Origin: an uncultured Ignavibacteria bacterium
GTDB lineage: Bacteria > Zixibacteria > MSB-5A5 > SM1-73
DNA: 64,000 nucleotides
NCBI GenBank assembly: GCA_964580215.1
Contig: CAZOJT010000001.1
Location: 126,475 to 190,474, forward strand
Direction of reading: 5' to 3'
This document shows positions 4,056-22,837 of this stretch, in pieces. The notes beneath the pieces are model-generated. The model saw only the letters and a program-made list of their open reading frames with translations, ran no database searches and was not told the DNA's origin. A program made the translations under genes and the position numbers. Numbering within the stretch: the stretch's first letter is position 1; the number at the start of each line of letters is the position of its first letter.

Positions 4056-5423
4056 ATGGCACTTTATCGAATTTTGATAGTGGATGACGATGAACATCAG
4101 AGAGAACAATTATCTGGCTTTTTGAAAAAGCAGGGTTTTAGCGTGACAACTGCTGAATCGGGTCTAGAGGCGATAAATCTTTGTCAAGACAAACATTTCG
4201 AGGTGGCTCTGATCGATCTAAAGATGCCCGGAATGGATGGAATTGAACTTTTAAAGAAGCTGAAAGAGTCAAACCCGGAAATTCAGGTGATTATGATCAC
4301 CGCGCACGGCTCGGTGGACACTGCAGTTGAAGCTATGAAACTGGGAGCATATCACTATGTAAATAAGCCAATTAACCTTGATGAGTTGAAACTAAACATT
4401 AACAAAGCCCTAGAAAGCTATCATCTTGTGTCGGAGAACAAATATTTAAAGGAGCAACTGGAAGAAAAATATAAGGATGTTCAGATAATCGGGAATAGCA
4501 AGGCAATAAAAGAGGTGCTAAGCACGGTTTCCCGGGTGGCAAAAACGAAATCGACTGTTTTGATAAGAGGCGACAGCGGGACAGGAAAAGAGCTCGTAGC
4601 AAGGGCAATTCATGCTTTAAGTGATCAAGCAGACCAAAGATTTATTCCCATCTCCTGTGCGGCTTTGCCGGAGACTCTCTTTGAGTCGGAGCTATTCGGA
4701 CATGAAAGAGGCGCCTTTACCGGAGCAATCAAGAAGAGAGAAGGTAGATTTGAACTGGCTGATGGGGGAACTCTGTTTTTGGATGAGGTGGGGGATATTC
4801 CCCTAGAGACCCAGGTTAAACTCCTTAGGGTGATTGAGTCGCAGGAATTTGAAAGATTAGGCGGTAAGGAAACTTTAAAAGTGGATGTGCGCATTATCTC
4901 TGCCACCAATCAAGACCTGGAGAAGAAGATCAAAGAGAGGAGTTTCAGGGAGGATCTGTATTATCGGCTGAATGTGATTTCCGTATTCATTCCCCCTTTG
5001 CGAGAAAGAAAAGGAGATATTTTGCTTTTAGTGGATCACTTCATCAAGAAAGCCAATCAAAAATGTGGCAGATCAATTAAAGGGATTACTCCAGAGGTCA
5101 AGGACTTAATTTTAAATTATGATTGGCCTGGAAACGTGCGGGAGCTGGAGAACGTGATCGAGAGGGGAGTAGTTCTTTCCAGGACAGAGGTGATAGACAA
5201 AACAGACCTGCCGTATTTTGGATTGGTGTCGGATAAATCTCTTAAGCATCTTCCATCCGCATCACTTTCTCTTAAAGATGTAGAAAAAGATCATATCTTG
5301 AGGGTTTTAAAAAAGACCAATTGGAACTTGAACAAGACCGCAGAGGTTTTGGGAATTCACCGAAATACACTTCGTTTGAAGATGAAAGAATATGGAATCG
5401 AGAAGGTCAACGGATTAAACTGA
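4056..5423 (+). CDS. Sigma-54-dependent response regulator (REC + AAA+ sigma-54 activator + Fis-type HTH), NtrC/AtoC/ZraR family
   Basis: REC domain (ILIVDDDEH...DLKMPGMDG). Walker A GDSGTGKELVARAIH and the GAFTGA motif ESELFGHERGAFTGA. C-terminal HTH NKTAEVLGIHRNTLRLKMKEYGI. Confidence 0.9.
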   Translation: MALYRILIVDDDEHQREQLSGFLKKQGFSVTTAESGLEAINLCQDKHFEVALIDLKMPGMDGIELLKKLKESNPEIQVIMITAHGSVDTAVEAMKLGAYHYVNKPINLDELKLNINKALESYHLVSENKYLKEQLEEKYKDVQIIGNSKAIKEVLSTVSRVAKTKSTVLIRGDSGTGKELVARAIHALSDQADQRFIPISCAALPETLFESELFGHERGAFTGAIKKREGRFELADGGTLFLDEVGDIPLETQVKLLRVIESQEFERLGGKETLKVDVRIISATNQDLEKKIKERSFREDLYYRLNVISVFIPPLRERKGDILLLVDHFIKKANQKCGRSIKGITPEVKDLILNYDWPGNVRELENVIERGVVLSRTEVIDKTDLPYFGLVSDKSLKHLPSASLSLKDVEKDHILRVLKKTNWNLNKTAEVLGIHRNTLRLKMKEYGIEKVNGLN

Positions 5424-5620
5424 TGAAATGGTCAACAGATTAAGCGGATTGTGTCTCTTGCTTCTCGTTGGCATTCGGTGGCTGGCAGACTTCACCTGTC
5501 CTATGATGGTTCGGCTCAACCGGGTCCCTGCTGAGGGGAAATGAATCGAGGCTGAAGAACAGCCGACAGTGCGAACTGCCTATGCATTATGATATTTGAC
5601 GTTTTGCAGAGAATGGAATT

Positions 5621-6259
5621 ATGAGAAACAAGATCAGAATATGCTATTATAACCTCTTTTCTCGTTTTTACGACGCTTTCGTTGCCTTACACTCCGGTGA
5701 CCCCGGTGGAAGATTGAGGGATCATCTGGCCGGAAAGGTTGGGTTAAAAAGCGCTGATGCGGTCTTAGACATATGTACCGGCACGGGAGCTATGTTGTCG
5801 AGTCTGCGCAAACGTATAGATGAGGAAGGGATGGTGGTTGGTCTTGATTTCTCAAGAGGAATGTTAAGGGCAGCCAGATCCAAACTTGCCTCCTATCCGA
5901 ATATCTTCTTGATCGAGGCGGACGTTTCCAACCTTCCTTTTAAGAATGACGTCTTCTCCGGCGTTACCTGCTCACATGCCTTCTATGAACTGAAAGGAGA
6001 TGCTTCAGTCAAATGTTTGCGTGAGATACATCGGGTACTCAGGAAGGGGAAGCATTTTTTGATGATGGAACATGAGGTTCCAGAGAATAGATTTGTTAGG
6101 ATGCTTTTTTATGTCAGGATATTCTTTATGGGTCGGAAGAAAGCCCTGGAGATTCTAAAAGAAGGGGAGAAGATATTCAGAAATAATTTTGGCCGGGTGG
6201 AAAAGTCAAAGACAGAAGACAGCAAGTCGAAAATCGTAGTCTGCGAAAAGGGGCGATAG
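5621..6259 (+). CDS. Class I SAM-dependent methyltransferase (UbiE/COQ5-type, methyltransf_11-like)
   Basis: Motif I VLDICTGTGAM, post-I GLDFSRGML and motif II/III region LIEADVSNLPFKNDVFSGVT. Confidence 0.7.
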   Translation: MRNKIRICYYNLFSRFYDAFVALHSGDPGGRLRDHLAGKVGLKSADAVLDICTGTGAMLSSLRKRIDEEGMVVGLDFSRGMLRAARSKLASYPNIFLIEADVSNLPFKNDVFSGVTCSHAFYELKGDASVKCLREIHRVLRKGKHFLMMEHEVPENRFVRMLFYVRIFFMGRKKALEILKEGEKIFRNNFGRVEKSKTEDSKSKIVVCEKGR

Positions 6260-6299
6260 CGCATTGACTTCCGCTGGCGCAACGGAGATCCTTCGGGCG

Positions 6300-6450
6300 G
6301 GAGATGAACGGGTCAACAGATTAAACGGATGAGACTGATGAATTGATGTCCCCTCTCCCCTTGGGGGAGACGAAGACCCGTCTGGGAGGGATGGGGTGAG
6401 GGGGAAAGTAATGGTCAACGGATTAAACGGATGAAGCGGATTAAGTGTCC
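6300..6450. repeat. Short repeat unit TGGTCAACRGATTAARCGGATGA, two copies flanking a G/C hairpin; further copies at 5405-5450 and (inverted) 51730-51765
   Basis: Copies at 6311-6332 and 6413-6445. The same word forms the last codons of the response regulator (EKVNGLN, 5403-5423) and recurs at 5428-5447 and 51744-51760 (reverse complement). Confidence 0.5.
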
Positions 6451-6487: not shown

Positions 6488-6832
6488 ATGGAGAAGATGA
6501 TTGCTTTTTGCGGGCTGGTTTGTACCGAATGTCCGGCATTCATTGCCACACAGAAAGATGATGAAGAAGAAAGAAGAAAAGTGGCTGAAATGTGGTCCAA
6601 AGAGTTTAAGATGGATTTGAAACCCGAAGACATCAACTGCGATGGGTGTTTAATTGACAGTGAAAACCTTTTCAGTCACTGCAAGGTTTGTCCAATACGG
6701 AAATGCGGAAAAGAGAAGAGAGTCGAAAATTGCGCCTATTGCGATGAATATGCGTGCGAAAAACTGACCAACTTTTTCAAAATGGCGCCCGAGGCAAAAA
6801 CGACTCTTGATAAAGTAAGAAAGATTCTCTGA
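6488..6832 (+). CDS. DUF3795-family cysteine-rich protein
   Basis: 114 aa with Cys pattern CGLVCTECPAF ... CDGC ... CKVCPIRKC ... CAYCDEYAC, typical of DUF3795 proteins. Good RBS GGAGGAG. Confidence 0.55.
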   Translation: MEKMIAFCGLVCTECPAFIATQKDDEEERRKVAEMWSKEFKMDLKPEDINCDGCLIDSENLFSHCKVCPIRKCGKEKRVENCAYCDEYACEKLTNFFKMAPEAKTTLDKVRKIL

Positions 6833-6899
6833 TTTTTCCATCTGCAGAACGCCGTTTTCATTTGTTCCCGTTCTTGCTTATCACCAATGGTGTTTAGTT

Positions 6900-7075
6900 G
6901 GTAGGGCGGGCATCCTTGCCCGCCGAATTTATGCGGGGCTGGAAGCCCCGCCTACGAATCGAGGTTTCCGTAGGGACAGGGCTTGGCCCTGGTGCGAACC
7001 AGAACGAGGACAGCCACAAGGGCTGTCCCTACGTCTGAATACCTGGAGCGGGCGCCATGAATGGCGTCCCTATAA
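6900..7075. repeat. Cluster of GC-rich extragenic palindromes (REP-like family C: gcggggctgg..agccccgcctacg)
   Basis: Hairpins gggcgggcatccttgcccgcc, gcggggctggaagccccgc and gggacagccacaagggctgtccc. Related copies at 9633-9775 and 22556-22663. Confidence 0.6.
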
Positions 7076-7120
7076 TCCTCACAACTATAGGAGCTCGATT
7101 CCTCGAGTCCGAAATCGACT

Positions 7121-8062
7121 TTGATCTGGTTCGGAATGAATAATCCCCACCAGCAACATGATAACCCAAACTTATCTGCAGGTTATCTCTACGCATCCCT
7201 GTCTGCGGTCATGGCGTCGGTGTTAATTGTGTCTGGTAAATGGACGCTCTATGCAATCTCCCCTCTGGCACTAAGTGCCTTAGTTTTTCCTATAGGTTCG
7301 GTTGTCCTGGGGCTGACTATGATTCCCCGGAAGCGATGGAAGCGAATCTTTGCTCTTGACCTAAGAGCGTGGGTATGGACTCTTGCTTTTAGTGTGCTGG
7401 CTTTCGTGGCAATCTGGACTTACTGGATTGGACTCAAAATGATGGACCCCACGTTAGCCTCATTTCTGAACCGCTTCGAGACTCTGGTTACAATCTCTCT
7501 GGGCATTTTGATTTTGGGTGAACGTTTTACTAAAGGTGAGGGGGCGGGCGCGATTTTAGTGTTGTTCGGAATTGTATTGATGAAGTTCGCCTTTAGAGCG
7601 GAGTATTCTGTCGGATTTTGGGTGGTGTTGTTCAGTTCTGTCTGCTTTGGGACGGCAGAGTTTATTGCCAAGATCGCTGTTCGTTATGTCGAGCCTTTGA
7701 CCATCAGCTTCTTACGGAACGTGGTGACCTCGATATTCTTTTGGATTGCAGTACTGATCGTAGGAACTTCCTTTGAAGGAGTTAGGTCGGTATGGTGGGG
7801 AGTTCTAATTATCGCCTTTGCCGGTCCAATACTAACCCGGCCGATTTATCTTTACGCCTTAAAACATATCGAAGTCTCCAAGGTCGCCCTGATTAACCAG
7901 AGCCAACCTGTTTTCGTGGCAATCCTGGCGCTTCTGGCTCTAAGCCAGACACCCGCCCCCCGTGAGATCATAGGCGGGCTATTTGTAATCGGTGGGTGCT
8001 TGTTTATTATCATAAGCCGCAGAAAACTTCGGCCCGGGAATGCCTTGAAGCCTCGGGAATAG
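7121..8062 (+). CDS. EamA/DMT-superfamily membrane transporter
   Basis: About 10 predicted TM helices in two EamA-like halves. No recognisable soluble domain. The true start may be internal. Confidence 0.55.
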   Translation: MIWFGMNNPHQQHDNPNLSAGYLYASLSAVMASVLIVSGKWTLYAISPLALSALVFPIGSVVLGLTMIPRKRWKRIFALDLRAWVWTLAFSVLAFVAIWTYWIGLKMMDPTLASFLNRFETLVTISLGILILGERFTKGEGAGAILVLFGIVLMKFAFRAEYSVGFWVVLFSSVCFGTAEFIAKIAVRYVEPLTISFLRNVVTSIFFWIAVLIVGTSFEGVRSVWWGVLIIAFAGPILTRPIYLYALKHIEVSKVALINQSQPVFVAILALLALSQTPAPREIIGGLFVIGGCLFIIISRRKLRPGNALKPRE

Positions 8063-8237
8063 CAATTGTGGAAGTTTTTGAAGAGGAGGAAAAAGTACTT
8101 GAGTTTTGAAAAGAAACGCCTTAGTGTAAAACAAAAGCAGATAAACTCACGAAAAGCGCTTGATTAGATGAACTGACGTTTCAGGAGGCGCGGTTTCGTG
8201 ATGACAAAATTTTGTTGCGAAAGAAAGGAGGAACAAA

Positions 8238-9077
8238 GTGACCATCAAAGACGCTGTGGAGGCTCTGGAAAAAGCCAGAGATTCAACGGTCATATCCTAT
8301 ATAGCGACCGATGGTTTTATAGACATGTCGGACTGCCTTGCGCTGGACGATAACCTGTCGTCTCTGACGGATTCGGGCCAGAAAAAACTACCTAAGTTAG
8401 ATCTCATACTACATAGTTCGGGGGGCATGCTTGAGGCTGCGTATAAATTTGTCAGGATCTGTCGACAATACTGTGATTCCTTCGCGGTCATTGTACCAGT
8501 ATTCGCGAAGAGCGCAGCAAGCTTTATTTGTTTCGCAGCTGATGAGATCGTGATGACGACCGTGTCTGAGCTTGGCCCTGTTGACCCAATAATCCAACAC
8601 CCGCAGAATCCTAATATTAGAGTACCTGCCAGATCGATCGCGGATTATCTTGAGTTCATAGCTGGTGTTGAAACTAAGGTGGCCTCTATTAATCCTGAGA
8701 CCAGAAGGACACTGGATAGACAGTTGGACCCTTATTTGATTGGGAGTTACCAAAGCGCCATTACAGGCTCCAAAGAGATTATAAAAAGGCTGCTCGAAGA
8801 AAATACTGCTTTTGTATATAAAGAAAAAATACCGGAGGTGGTAAAGTTATTCACCGAAACGTATCGACTGCACACCTTTCCGATTGATCGAGATGAACTT
8901 GACAGAATCGGGTTTGGACCTATGGTAGTGAGACCCGAGCAGACACCTGGGCTTCTCGTTGCAATAAAACAGCTTTTAGGGATTTACCTTAATTTCATGC
9001 AGGTGAATGACTTCATCAAGCTGCAGGGAAATAGGTACAAGAACTGGCATGTGGGTCGCAAAAAGGCTCAAGTGTGA
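8238..9077 (+). CDS. ClpP-fold serine peptidase, S49/SDH (serine dehydrogenase proteinase)-like
   Basis: LILHSSGGMLEAAYKFVRI...VPVFAKSAASFICFAADEIVMTTVSELGPVDPII resembles the ClpP/SppA core, with a putative catalytic Ser in AKSAAS. Confidence 0.55.
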   Translation: MTIKDAVEALEKARDSTVISYIATDGFIDMSDCLALDDNLSSLTDSGQKKLPKLDLILHSSGGMLEAAYKFVRICRQYCDSFAVIVPVFAKSAASFICFAADEIVMTTVSELGPVDPIIQHPQNPNIRVPARSIADYLEFIAGVETKVASINPETRRTLDRQLDPYLIGSYQSAITGSKEIIKRLLEENTAFVYKEKIPEVVKLFTETYRLHTFPIDRDELDRIGFGPMVVRPEQTPGLLVAIKQLLGIYLNFMQVNDFIKLQGNRYKNWHVGRKKAQV

Positions 9078-9092
9078 GGGAGGCACTATAAA

Positions 9093-9611
9093 ATGCAAAC
9101 TGAATCTTTGTTAGTTTTGGGTGCCCAGTCTCCACCATCTCCAGGATTTGAATCTATATTGCTCATTGCGGCCACAGTCGTGGGTTTCTTTTTTGGAGCT
9201 CTCCTTACATACCTTTTTGACTTGAAGAAGCTAAAAATAATTAGAAAGAAGGAATTTGATCTACACCAAGTTAATTCCCTTCTTGCACTGCTCAAAAGGC
9301 TGTTGATTGTGACGCGTGGAGAGCTACCAGCCGAGAAAGAAATAGCGAGTGATATACTTGATGAGTTTTACGCGGAAGCGGCACTGGTCGTTTCGCTGCC
9401 AAGTGCTATCACTTCGAAGCTCGACGAACTATACTCGAGGTGTTTAGCCTATAATGAATATCTTGATTTGTTACAAAACCGATCAGATACTACCTCGCTC
9501 GAGCAAGGTAATCTCAAACTTTCGGACAAGAGAGAAGAACAGAAACGGCACGAATTGGAAAACCTGGTGAAGGAGATTGTGGGCCAGATACGAGAGTCTT
9601 ACGTAGTTTAG
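9093..9611 (+). CDS. Small membrane-anchored coiled-coil protein, unknown function (likely co-transcribed with the upstream peptidase)
   Basis: N-terminal TM (ILLIAATVVGFFFGALLTYLF) followed by a charged helical region. The 15-nt gap to the peptidase gene contains an RBS (gagggagg). Confidence 0.4.
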   Translation: MQTESLLVLGAQSPPSPGFESILLIAATVVGFFFGALLTYLFDLKKLKIIRKKEFDLHQVNSLLALLKRLLIVTRGELPAEKEIASDILDEFYAEAALVVSLPSAITSKLDELYSRCLAYNEYLDLLQNRSDTTSLEQGNLKLSDKREEQKRHELENLVKEIVGQIRESYVV

Positions 9612-9632
9612 TAACTTTTGCGGGAAGAATCA

Positions 9633-9775
9633 TGCGGGGCTGGTCATCCCATAGGCAGATCCCCCGCCTCTGGCGGGGGAGAGCCCCGCCTACGCGGGAC
9701 TTGTGGATGATAACATCCACAAGGAGCAGAAAGTCACGTAGGGTCCCACCTCAGGCGGGACGAACTCAGGCACTT
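9633..9775. repeat. REP-like palindrome cluster (family C copy)
   Basis: catgcggggctggtcatcccataggcagatcccccgcctctggcgggggagagccccgcctacg, plus hairpins gtggatgataacatccac and gtcccacctcaggcgggac. Confidence 0.6.
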
Positions 9776-9788
9776 TTTCAAAAACCTC

Positions 9789-10706
9789 TTAGAACCAATC
9801 AAGTATCCCCATATAAAAAGATTTGCCATAGACTTTGTGAATATCGACATCTGTCAGGTTCTTCACCATCAATACGCTATTGTCTCCTTTTTGAACTCGA
9901 TATCCTTTGGATTTATATATACCCAGAAGCCTTTCATCCGGAACCAAACGGTTAATCACCCCATTTATGGCAACCTGCTCTACCTCTTCAATAAGTTTTC
10001 CGTAAGTGGAATCATCCAGCGCCACCAAATCCTGAATCTTAACCACGTTTTGGCTCTCCGACACCAAAGCGTATCCCTTTTCCTTCTGGATCGATTTTCG
10101 TTCATCAAACCTTTTACGCTGGGCAAACATGGTGACAAAATCTTTTTGTCTGACTGCAAATCCGGTCTTGTCTTTCATAGACTTTTCGTAGATCTGATAA
10201 ATCTTTTCGGGATCGAGGTTGATATGGGCATTTTTACCTTCTTGTTCTGTTTTATCCAAAACTTTGTAAACGCCCATGAATTGATTTACACCTTCGACTT
10301 CCGTATATCCTAATTTCTCGTAGAAGGCAAAAGCGATTATGGTACGAATGGTGCAGAGGAAGGAGAAGCGGTAATTCTGTGAGCGAAAATAGTCGTGAGC
10401 CGCCTCCATCAGAGTCGTGCAGATTCCCTGCCGTGCAAAATCGGGATTGGTCGCCACCGCCCAGATCCCCCCGATAATCTCCATCTCGCCTTCGACAGTT
10501 TTTGTGGGAATATCCATCACTCCCACGAAGCCTGCCAGCTGGCCATCCTTTACAGCACAGAATCCAACCGGACCATTCTTTAGCCTTGCGTCTGATCCTA
10601 TCCTCTCTTCCATATCCTCAGGTGAGATGGGCCACCAGAAGGCAAGCTCCATCAACATCATGATGTCATCCTTCGGCTCTAATTCTCTGTAAGTTACTAT
10701 CTCCAT
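9789..10706 (-). CDS. GNAT-family N-acetyltransferase with C-terminal extension
   Basis: GNAT core FCAVKDGQLAGFVGV...IWAVATNPDFARQGICTTLMEAAHDYF. The ORF extends to 10811, but the likely start is the internal Met (MEIVTYREL) preceded by AAGGAAG. Confidence 0.6.
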   Translation of the reverse strand: MEIVTYRELEPKDDIMMLMELAFWWPISPEDMEERIGSDARLKNGPVGFCAVKDGQLAGFVGVMDIPTKTVEGEMEIIGGIWAVATNPDFARQGICTTLMEAAHDYFRSQNYRFSFLCTIRTIIAFAFYEKLGYTEVEGVNQFMGVYKVLDKTEQEGKNAHINLDPEKIYQIYEKSMKDKTGFAVRQKDFVTMFAQRKRFDERKSIQKEKGYALVSESQNVVKIQDLVALDDSTYGKLIEEVEQVAINGVINRLVPDERLLGIYKSKGYRVQKGDNSVLMVKNLTDVDIHKVYGKSFYMGILDWF

Positions 10707-11031
10707 GATTAACTTCCTTTTTTGTGAAGTAGTTTCTCTTTGCTTCTTTTTAACGAAAAAGTGAGTAAAAACTAAAAGGGCTTGTTGAGAAACCCAAACT
10801 GGAGTGCCCATGTGGGCGGTTTTCCTCAGAGTTTAAGTGGTGAAGACATAAGAGCATCTGAATTTTCCGAATTTGGATTTTGGGGACAACAAATCGCGAA
10901 AGCAAGCTTTCGCACTCCAAAAACACTTTTTCAACAGTCCCTAAAATCAATTATCTTAAACTTTGCTGTGCTGAGATTTAACTCTAAACTCCCTTTTAGG
11001 TTTAAGGAGGGCAAAAAGAATTCAGCTTAAT

Positions 11032-14876: not shown

Positions 14877-15030
14877 TGTCGAAAAACCACAAAAAGGTCA
14901 TTTGTGTCATTCTGAACGAAGTGAAGAATCTAATAAATTCAACATGTTACAAATACGTATACACTCATACGAGTTTGAGATTCTTCCCCCGCCAAAGGCG
15001 GGGTCAGAATGACATTTCTCGACAGGCTCT
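14877..15030. mobile_element. MITE-like element A, copy 1 (TIR tgtcattctga / tcagaatgaca)
   Basis: About 150 bp with an internal palindrome (cgtatacactcatacg), hairpin cccccgccaaaggcgggg and terminal inverted repeats. Copy 2 at 18217-18390 is near-identical. Confidence 0.55.
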
Positions 15031-18216: not shown

Positions 18217-18390
18217 TCGAAAAACTACAAAAAGGTCCTTTATGTCATTCTGTCCGAATTTGGATCCATAGGAAACGAAGTGAAGAATCTAATAAATTCA
18301 ATATGTTTCAAATGCGTATGCACTCATACGAGTTTGAGATTCTTCCCCCGCCAAAGGCGGGGTCAGAATGACATATCATGACAGGCTCAT
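18217..18390. mobile_element. MITE-like element A, copy 2 (with a 20-bp internal insertion gtccgaatttggatccatagg)
   Basis: Alignable by eye to 14877-15030 over about 150 bp, with the same TIRs and the same hairpin cccccgccaaaggcgggg. Confidence 0.55.
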
Positions 18391-22555: not shown

Positions 22556-22663
22556 GCGTATGCTCGTCCCGCCGTTGGCGGGACGCACATTCATACGAAT
22601 TTGCGGGGTTGGTCATGCCTTAGGCAGATCCCGCCACAGGCGGGGGAGAGCCCCGTCTACGGT
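22556..22663. repeat. Composite repeat (tcgtatgaat-family fragment + family C REP)
   Basis: gcgtatgctcgtcccgccgttggcgggacgcacattcatacgaat followed by gcggggttggtcatgccttaggcagatcccgccacaggcgggggagagccccgtctacgg. Confidence 0.5.
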
Positions 22664-22837
22664 AGCAAAAGTGTTGATTTTTCGTAGGTAGGGCACCCAT
22701 GCCCGACCACTCCCTTCCACTTTTTCACAGACCTCATATAATTGACTTGACAGCCCCTCAAGCCAATTATATATTTTGACGAATTTTAGAAAGTTTCAGA
22801 GTGGTTTGCGAATTCTAACAACAAGGATAGGTGAAAC

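Follow-up and report, generated by a model that had tools for sequence, protein, structure and literature searches.

A two-gene cassette of an SDH-type ClpP-fold protease and a putative membrane partner at a REP-like doublet, a candidate phage-defence module

In the window (the whole stretch of 64,000 nt that was analysed), a short variable element lies 3′ of an EamA-family transporter gene. With moderate confidence, it is read as a horizontally acquired cassette of about 1.55 kb at a REP-doublet site, carrying two genes that most likely form a phage-defence or abortive-infection module. The genes encode an SDH-type ClpP-fold serine protease and a partner protein with a predicted transmembrane (TM) helix. 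As this pair is found in the company of restriction and other anti-phage genes in other phyla, it is probably a phage-defence module, and one that has been little studied. This gene context also backs the defensive flavour of the protease-based abortive-infection idea raised in the initial annotation, and it is from such sequence data that we infer a defence function of the pair.

On the forward strand, the EamA-family (DMT) transporter gene (7136-8062, ATG at 7136, 308 aa; PF00892, E = 2e-37) is followed by an AT-rich leader (8063-8237, 38% GC), presumed to be a promoter or regulatory region, the protease gene (8238-9077, 279 aa) and the partner gene (9093-9611, 172 aa). The initial annotation had given the ORF coordinates correctly and had placed both genes and repeats right, grouping them into a repeat-flanked 2.9-kb islet that might be a mobile cassette. 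There is indeed a mobile or variable cassette, but its limits and the role of the repeats differ from those proposed. The variable element consists of the 175-nt leader, the protease gene and the partner gene only (approximately 8063-9625). A repeat-bounded islet including EamA is ruled out, as relatives without the pair retain both EamA and the repeat cluster preceding it (cluster A); the transporter is a backbone neighbour outside the module.

Nine relatives with an RR-(MT)-DUF3795-EamA synteny lack both genes of the pair, and their EamA orthologues show 67-85% amino acid identity. In two of the nine, L130 and L131, a REP doublet of about 100 nt comes directly after EamA, and next to it lies an Ala_racemase_N/D-ser_dehydrat gene, a 76-79% orthologue of the gene that comes after the pair in L003. 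This last relative does contain the pair, and its homology to the window ends at 9593. Judged by EamA, the window is closer to L131 (85%, no pair) than to L003 (79%, pair present); the presence of the pair does not follow relatedness, and EamA with cluster A is conserved backbone. The neighbours of the pair in the window and in L003 include no defence genes (EamA, GNAT, DUF3795).

The leader is missing in the relatives with an empty site, which cease to match the window at the EamA stop codon. It is 91-97% identical to that of L003, versus 54-85% for the coding sequence 3′ of it. Scanning the leader for sigma-70 promoters and terminators gave nothing over shuffle expectation, and it has no significant fold. 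Rfam returned no match at gathering thresholds across the window, with only sub-threshold noise in 6800-9900. A 22-aa upstream ORF in the leader (TTG at 8100, GGAGG ribosome-binding site) was considered and rejected; its coding is unsupported because all four nucleotide differences from L003 alter the amino acid. The protease and partner genes, described earlier as translationally coupled, are close-packed without overlap: the 15-nt gap between stop codon and ATG holds a GGGAGG Shine-Dalgarno sequence, 8 nt upstream of the ATG of the partner.

According to the ORF list, no recombinase, transposase or integrase gene is present inside 8063-9625. Apart from REP fragments, no repeat, inverted or direct, is common to the two cassette ends, and comparing the junctions with empty sites revealed no target-site duplication that would explain the insertion. 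By these features, the cassette is not recognisable as a discrete mobile element such as an IS, transposon, integron cassette or genomic island.

Cluster A (6896-7075; fold z = -4.9) is composed of GTAG plus GC-rich hairpin units at 6901-6925, 6933-6956, 6969-7033 and 7046-7070, and lies in the backbone outside the cassette. It is 97% identical in L003, and its units occur with varying composition in relatives without the protease pair. Cluster B (9622-9775; fold z = -4.0), where the synteny with L003 ends, contains a unit at 9634-9694. GTAG/CTAC is carried by the units 6901-6925, 6933-6956, 7008-7033 and 9672-9693. Both ATGCGGGGCTGG and AGCCCCGCCTACG are found exactly at 6931-6956 and at 9632-9694. 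The clusters are not near-identical, as had been stated, since the common part is only about 25 nt of the outer stem of one hairpin. The best copy of the 62-nt unit 9634-9694 is located outside the block at 22603-22661, and a third REP-like cluster spans 22560-22710. Across the 64-kb window, the CCCGCC-N3-GGCGGG core hairpin occurs 11 times versus 0.02 expected, and GC-rich hairpins are present at many intergenic sites. These palindromes are a dispersed, genome-wide REP-like family and not cassette ends. Therefore, the repeats are ubiquitous and unrelated to the borders of the block, and they no longer serve to delimit it.

The REP doublet occupies the empty site in relatives, and its right half is the counterpart of the unit 9634-9694, which here has a 38-nt inner hairpin. 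The doublet marks the insertion or recombination site and does not flank the element as terminal repeats. As in the REP/BIME (REPIN) elements of proteobacteria, GTAG/CTAC abuts GC-rich hairpins of 7-9 bp, and the units form inverted doublets and clusters that are intergenic, dispersed and variable in content among relatives. The window repeats differ from them in their consensus and in the association of a doublet with the insertion or recombination site of a gene cassette.

The block had also been described as GC-rich. This applies to 6896-9785 as a whole (47.4% vs 43.9% for the window; window SD 2.9; 4.9% of same-size windows as high or higher), but EamA (48.6%) and the REP clusters (61%) account for the excess. 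At 44.7% vs 43.9%, the pair of protease and partner genes is itself average, which rules out reading it as a GC-rich island.

Based on HMM searches, the protease contains Pfam PF01972 (SDH_protease; 57.0 bits vs a gathering threshold of 31.3), with residues 9-235 covering profile positions 43-251 of 286, and this domain is present in 114/114 of its homologues. The ClpP/SppA-type core motifs pointed out before (LILHSSGG, AKSAASF and GPVDPII) are present. The protein is indeed not a canonical ClpP, SppA or NfeD: PF00574 and PF01343 are absent at E ≤ 0.1, NfeD1b_N (PF25145) reaches 20.8 bits vs a cutoff of 40, and PF01957 gives no match. Against NCBIfam NF047768 (Clp_like_SDH), whose model name is carried by E. 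coli members of the family, it scores 74.3 bits vs an equivalog cutoff of 250 and is a family-level relative, not an equivalog. In Foldseek, the AF2 model (pLDDT 90) best matches SppA 3rst and chains of ClpP, with a probability of 1.00 at 13-17% identity; what the protease has in common with ClpP (PF00574) and SppA (PF01343) is the fold alone. No solved structure of the SDH family was found.

In the homologue alignment, S92, D116, D164 and H212 are invariant and H121 is near-invariant. S92 is the candidate nucleophile, and D116, D164, H212 and H121 are candidate catalytic residues. S92 aligns with the Ser of the AASAG motif in the NfeD protease PH1510, which we take to be the nucleophile Ser97. 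The protease has no true TM segment and no C-terminal OB domain, and is predicted to be cytoplasmic.

For the partner, described initially as a single-TM coiled-coil protein of no known family, the one N-terminal TM helix and the lack of a family stand. Its AF2 model (pLDDT 74) is all-alpha (helices H19-75, H86-98, H104-133 and H138-170) and depicts a four-helix bundle, not a coiled coil. The TM helix (approximately residues 20-42) is followed by a basic stretch, KKLKIIRKK, and then by the bundle, which probably lies in the cytoplasm; KEFDxxQ and CLxYN are conserved motifs. The partner has no match in Pfam (E ≤ 0.1), NCBIfam, PADLOC or PHROG, and PADLOC-DB v2 does not match the protease either. 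The fold search gave no significant PDB match, only generic four-helix bundles with E ≥ 0.06. Partner homologues number at least 60 cluster representatives, none of which has a Pfam domain. In the close clade, the partner gene invariably comes after the protease gene, with a gap of 1-21 nt or a 4-nt overlap.

When the flanks of 11 loci with the pair were compared by all-vs-all BLAST, the protease and the TM protein directly downstream were all that they had in common; neither a small upstream ORF nor any third gene was conserved between them, and EamA is beside the pair in none of the other loci. The proteases of loci labelled Omnitrophota, ‘Deltaproteobacteria’ and Sedimentisphaerales and of one unlabelled metagenome contig are 77-84% identical to each other and 48-57% identical to the window protease. 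Further members are labelled Berkelbacteria, Patescibacteria, Gammaproteobacteria and Spirochaetes, and the pair recurs under at least six phylum-level labels.

RM, DISARM-like, GmrSD-like or prophage/mobile-element neighbours are present in 7 of the 10 other loci, a raw count from about 11 lineages with no formal background rate. These neighbours are a type III MTase (E = 3e-113) with Res, a T4SS coupling protein and a relaxase (L085), an NsnA/GmrSD-like protein with an MTase (L086), DrmD (E = 2e-184) with MTases beside a gammaproteobacterial pair (L087), a type II REase and MTase with RhuM and a Panacea TA (L088), a prophage with CI, RecT, HNH and NERD (L092) and a type IIG RM (E = 5e-117) with SLFN (L094). 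In L127, the pair is located between a type I MTase (E = 1e-184) and HsdS. L126 and L128 have housekeeping contexts, and L091 has housekeeping genes upstream, its contig stopping at the protease gene. Among the loci, identity falls from the protease core (67%) over the protease C-terminal domain (52%) to the partner (15-30%), as expected if the C-terminal domain and the partner face a variable target.

More distant SDH proteases likewise occur in settings of conflict or mobile elements, which also favours defence; examples are phrog_11747 (E = 2e-36), a moron between Q and holin in E. coli, and genes adjoining HicAB, Shedu SduA_C, ThsB-TIR and NYN. A 4.15-kb ColE1-type plasmid has a distant SDH protease as its main cargo, which would suit a selfish addiction (toxin-antidote) pair. 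Here, the small membrane protein would be a holin-like toxin continually removed by the protease, or the reverse, and the pair would stabilise mobile elements without being dedicated to anti-phage action. The tight two-gene operon with its small single-TM protein, the patchy, horizontally transferred distribution and the weak resemblance of one partner's TM region to a holin PHROG (E = 0.006) are consistent with this. However, the conserved portion of the partner is a four-helix bundle of about 130 aa, probably cytoplasmic, and not a minimal pore-former, and the pairs inside an RM operon and beside RM and DISARM-like genes point to defence islands. Addiction is therefore considered an unlikely explanation; toxin-antitoxin and abortive-infection roles can coexist.

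Since a Firmicutes SDH clade keeps a conserved tatA/lgt neighbourhood, the SDH family is not intrinsically defensive. This neighbourhood suggests a secretion-related role and fits housekeeping membrane proteolysis, NfeD-stomatin- or SppA-like, in which the protease would serve quality control by processing its membrane-anchored partner or further membrane proteins. The ClpP/SppA fold, the weak sequence similarity to PH1510 with its aligned nucleophile and the non-defence contexts of the window, L126 and L128 agree with such a regulated process. Yet the nine close relatives do without the pair at the same locus, the neighbourhood varies between loci, and identities of 77-84% between phyla speak for a recent transfer. 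The analogy with NfeD (PH1510) and stomatin (PH1511) drawn initially extends to a ClpP-fold serine protease gene beside the gene of a membrane-anchored partner, but does not hold further. The window protease is soluble, lacks TM and OB domains and stays under the NfeD1b_N cutoff; its partner, an all-alpha four-helix bundle, has no SPFH/Band_7 domain, and the distribution is patchy. Unlike PH1510, the candidate catalytic set has invariant His and Asp and no conserved Lys; the position aligned to the PPK motif of PH1510, whose Lys is presumably Lys138, is R/H/Q here. The protease is neither a housekeeping SppA/NfeD orthologue nor set in a conserved neighbourhood, and a housekeeping role seems improbable.

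A decayed phage or conjugative-element remnant, once serving superinfection exclusion or morphogenesis (a ClpP-like prohead protease with a scaffold-like helical protein), is very unlikely: head-maturation proteases related to ClpP are matched weakly in NCBIfam (31 bits) and PHROG (E = 4e-4), and these matches, the L092 prophage and the T4SS/relaxase genes at L085 would fit it, but the matches are far under cutoffs (31 vs 120 bits), capsid, portal and terminase genes adjoin the pair at no locus examined, a scan of 2.9 million IMG/VR viral contigs yielded no close-clade member, the catalytic-type residues are all intact and the pair is kept across phyla.

The favoured defence module can be compared to FS_HP_SDH_sah, which is reportedly PICI-encoded and made up of a hypothetical protein and an SDH_sah protease. 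Both are two-gene modules of a PF01972 (SDH_sah/SDH_protease) ClpP-fold protease and a small unannotated protein, carried on mobile elements or in defence islands, and the naming domain of the FS_HP_SDH_sah protease component (PF01972) is present in the window protease. In the pair studied here, the partner lies downstream, measures 134-178 aa across the pair loci and is a predicted membrane-anchored four-helix bundle. The model name FS_HP_SDH_sah is attested for DefenseFinder (PMC13532340). The enterobacterial SDH proteases retrieved, which may not be FS_HP_SDH_sah itself, are about 25-33% identical to the window protease. They occur either solo, as a moron between Q and holin in E. coli, or after a 67-aa soluble upstream protein in a K. 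pneumoniae prophage, and this protein is unlike the window partner. In composition, the pair appears akin to FS_HP_SDH_sah, with the different, membrane-anchored partner as what seems to be new.

Bacterial gasdermins with their associated protease and RexAB are protease-plus-membrane-effector or membrane abortive-infection defences. The pair resembles them in its logic: a small operon, present in prophages and defence islands, couples a cytoplasmic enzyme to a membrane protein. However, no sequence or fold kinship was detected, and the window partner, with its single TM helix, does not have the fold of a gasdermin or of RexB.

As a defence module, the pair might work as follows. The soluble protease would be held at the inner side of the membrane by the partner, which would also restrain it or sense a trigger. 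Infection would switch the protease on, and the substrate then cleaved would be either the partner or a target from host or phage, so that phage production stops. Both the topology of the partner and which protein cleaves what are parts of this scheme that we infer. Tentatively, and as a possible rather than a probable reading, the pair may form an uncatalogued cross-phylum subtype of SDH-protease defence (Patescibacteria/CPR, Omnitrophota, Planctomycetota, Proteobacteria, Spirochaetes). In this subtype, a fast-evolving membrane-anchored bundle would act as sensor or gatekeeper of a ClpP-fold effector, a membrane-tethered proteolytic abortive infection without characterised precedent.

To our knowledge, SDH-type ClpP-fold proteases are listed by one validated defence system, for which we know of no mechanism, and few defence systems of CPR bacteria have been characterised. 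A literature search on SDH-type or ClpP-like proteases in defence returned no mechanistic paper. The locus offers a concrete case of an accessory gene cassette that has a REP doublet as its landing or recombination site. The pair itself is a clean, minimal and widely transferred unit of a protease and a membrane partner, with presence/absence sites and RM-embedded versions, and is as such a tractable way into how a ClpP-fold protease may act in immunity, also in CPR bacteria.

Five genes lie in the region. A DUF3795 gene (6488-6832), an EamA/DMT transporter of 308 aa (Pfam EamA, 2e-37; reading frame open from 7121, in-frame ATG at 7136), a 279-aa peptidase (8238-9077) and a 172-aa partner protein (9093-9611) lie on the forward strand, and a convergent GNAT gene (9789-10811) on the reverse strand. 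Based on Pfam, the peptidase is an SDH_protease (PF01972; 57 bits, cutoff 31.3). ClpP (PF00574) and SppA (PF01343) do not match it and its NfeD1b_N score stays under the cutoff, confirming that it is neither a canonical ClpP, SppA nor NfeD; against the NCBIfam SDH equivalog NF047768 it reaches 74, with a cutoff of 250. The partner is unmatched in Pfam, NCBIfam, PADLOC and PHROGs, in line with the initial annotation of no known family. PADLOC returned zero matches among the EamA protein, the peptidase and the partner.

In one relative with the pair (L003), the upstream region is 88-92% identical to the window at the nucleotide level, the order HK-RR-DUF3795-EamA-protease-partner is retained and homology stops exactly after the partner. 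A correctly framed EamA scan identified nine further relatives (EamA 67-85% identical) that keep RR-(methyltransferase)-DUF3795-EamA, with protease and partner both absent. In the relatives L130 and L131, the EamA stop is followed by an ~100-nt REP doublet (CGTAGGGCGGGCATCCTTGCCCGCC...ATGCGGGGCTGGGAGCCCCGCCTACG) and then by a convergent Ala_racemase_N/D-ser_dehydrat gene, a 76-79% orthologue of the gene directly after the pair in L003. Therefore, the leader (8063-8237) and the two genes, about 1.55 kb, form a presence/absence cassette at the REP doublet. EamA and the REP-like cluster A (6896-7075) are backbone, and cluster B (9622-9775) corresponds to the right half of the ancestral doublet, into which an inner hairpin has been inserted. 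Presence of the pair does not track relatedness, since it is absent from L131 (EamA 85% identical to the window) and present in L003 (79%). The cassette shows no recombinase, terminal repeats or target duplication; insertion may have proceeded by REP-mediated recombination. The repeat-flanked 2.9-kb islet (6896-9785) of the initial annotation included the EamA gene, which nine relatives have without the pair; a protease-partner cassette of 1.55 kb at a REP doublet is the better description of the locus. The proposed mobile cassette thus survives as the presence or absence of the pair at the doublet, not in its 2.9-kb extent; overall, the initial observation is confirmed in part and its interpretation supported in part.

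Identity to L003 is 91-97% over the 3' end of EamA, the 175-nt leader and the initial ~60 nt of the protease gene (8001-8300) and 54-85% over the remaining cassette. Such a mosaic points either to recent recombination or to a regulatory leader under strong constraint. Neither a promoter, an Rfam family nor a stable fold was detected in the leader. A sigma-54 enhancer-binding protein is encoded upstream of the pair in both the window (4056-5423) and a Sedimentisphaerales locus (L126, 7035-8366; 42% identical), probably by coincidence, and inspection of the window leader by eye showed no sigma-54 promoter motif. Also upstream, a 16-nt direct repeat, GGTCAACGGATTAAAC, occurs in four copies (5405, 5430, 6311 and 6413; 0.03 expected). 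These copies (5405-6428) bracket an ~1-kb segment with a SAM methyltransferase (5621-6259) that is missing in L003, where the junction has one repeat region, and present in L130 and L131. As a repeat-flanked indel, this segment is more clear-cut than the protease-partner cassette.

The repeat strings quoted initially are exact and present at both ends of the 2.9-kb block. Clusters A and B, taken to be near-identical, share no more than the outer stem of a single hairpin. Nor do the repeats delimit the block, as they are a dispersed REP/BIME-like family and not paired cassette termini: the CCCGCC-N3-GGCGGG core hairpin occurs 11 times in the window versus 0.02 expected. A hairpin scan of the window gave 40 matches (overlapping calls counted) at ~20 sites, versus 0-7 in shuffles; several adjoin GTAG/CTAC, and the repeat clusters fold strongly (z -4 to -5). 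Outside the block, the 62-nt unit at 9634-9694 recurs at 22603-22661 with ~90% identity. This copy lies in a third multi-hairpin REP cluster (22560-22710), and two identical 31-nt hairpin sites, attcttcCCCCGCCAAAGGCGGGGtcagaat, are found 3.4 kb apart (14987-15003 and 18346-18362). The block is GC-rich as described (47.4% versus 43.9% for the window; top 5% of same-size windows), an excess due to the REP clusters (61%) and EamA (48.6%), with only 44.7% in the protease-partner pair.

When one genome per species was scanned, a close clade of proteases (41-57% identical to the window protease) was recovered from loci labelled Berkelbacteria, Patescibacteria, Gammaproteobacteria, Omnitrophota, 'Deltaproteobacteria', Sedimentisphaerales and Spirochaetes, and proteases of 77-84% identity occur under differing phylum labels. 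The protease is always followed by a 134-177-aa protein with an N-terminal TM segment, 1-21 nt away or overlapping by 4 nt. The co-occurrence of the two genes thus holds throughout this close clade; when flanks were compared all-vs-all, they were the only genes common to the loci. Neighbours comprise a type III restriction-modification (RM) system, T4SS coupling protein and relaxase (L085), an NsnA/GmrSD-like HNH protein and methylase (L086), DrmD (2e-184) and methylases (L087), type II RM, RhuM, T5orf172 and Panacea toxin-antitoxin (L088-L090), a prophage early region with S24 repressor, RecT, HNH and NERD (L092-L093), and a type IIG RM (5e-117) with an SLFN/AlbA protein (L094). In L127 (2342-7594), the pair is located within a type I RM operon, in the order type I MTase (1e-184), 158-aa ORF, SDH protease, partner and HsdS. 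Defence neighbours are absent at three loci (L126, L128 and the incomplete L091) and from the window/L003 lineage.

Conflict or mobile-element contexts are also seen among more distant SDH proteases. These include a phage family without assigned function, phrog_11747 (2e-36). E. coli has a stand-alone 331-aa 'SDH family Clp fold serine proteinase' as a moron, flanked by the Q antiterminator and the holin of a lambdoid prophage or phage-plasmid (L096, 4968-5963; L129, 4001-4996); 47 of the 5426 complete genomes carry it at 99% identity or above. In Porphyromonas phages an SDH protease adjoins HicAB, and on a ColRNAI/ColE1-type Klebsiella quasipneumoniae plasmid (L095, NZ_CP089444.1, 4150 bp), which also encodes Rop and an HTH protein, a 351-aa SDH-family protease is the largest gene. 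SDH proteases of 358-377 aa with an N-terminal HTH_17 extension (L012, L013 and L019) adjoin Shedu SduA_C, NYN or ThsB-type TIR genes. A Firmicutes clade (L020-L084; Desulfosporosinus, Peptococcaceae and Clostridia; 35-39% identity) has no TM partner. Its tatA-like or lgt-like genes ~60-220 nt downstream, recognised by eye from N-terminal sequences, form a conserved neighbourhood that looks housekeeping.

The window pair resembles FS_HP_SDH_sah, which reportedly came first from Fillol-Salom et al. 2022, in protease family and two-gene format. FS_HP_SDH_sah is a named DefenseFinder system (PMC13532340). Unlike the window pair, the enterobacterial SDH loci retrieved either lack a partner or encode a soluble 67-aa protein upstream, and their proteases are 25-33% identical to the window protease. 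The pair is provisionally treated as a variant of this known type and not as a member.

The protease model is confident (pLDDT 90) and closest to the solved folds of SppA and ClpP (13-17% identity). By sequence profile, the NfeD protease PH1510 is the sole match; the Ser of its AASAG motif, reported as the nucleophile Ser97, lies opposite S92 in the alignment. S92, D116, D164 and H212 are invariant in 24 homologues, and H121 nearly so. The protease has neither a signal peptide nor a TM segment; one hydrophobic stretch flagged as a candidate TM segment comprises the strand and helix of the active site. For the partner, the model (pLDDT 74) shows a TM helix continuing into a four-helix bundle, without a significant PDB match. 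As an acidic N-terminus precedes the TM helix and KKLKIIRKK follows it, the positive-inside rule predicts a cytoplasmic bundle. Partner homologues are recognisable yet very divergent (15-30% identity), with KEFDxxQ and CLxYN motifs in common; the family comprises 60 or more cluster representatives, all lacking a Pfam domain.

An addiction or toxin-antidote module carries lower weight as an explanation of the pair, as does a decayed phage or ICE function. An NfeD-stomatin-type housekeeping pair for membrane proteolysis, the likeness drawn initially, is likewise given lower weight: NfeD1b_N is below cutoff, and the pair falls within neither NfeD-stomatin, ClpP nor SppA. The reading with most support is an accessory module of two genes spread by horizontal transfer, with anti-phage activity as its probable, candidate function. 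In this module, the effector role would fall to the protease, and the fast-evolving, membrane-anchored partner would serve as tether, sensor or substrate of the protease. Divergence rises from the catalytic core (67% mean pairwise identity) through the C-terminal domain (52%) to the partner (15-30%), a gradient that would fit a variable recognition surface.
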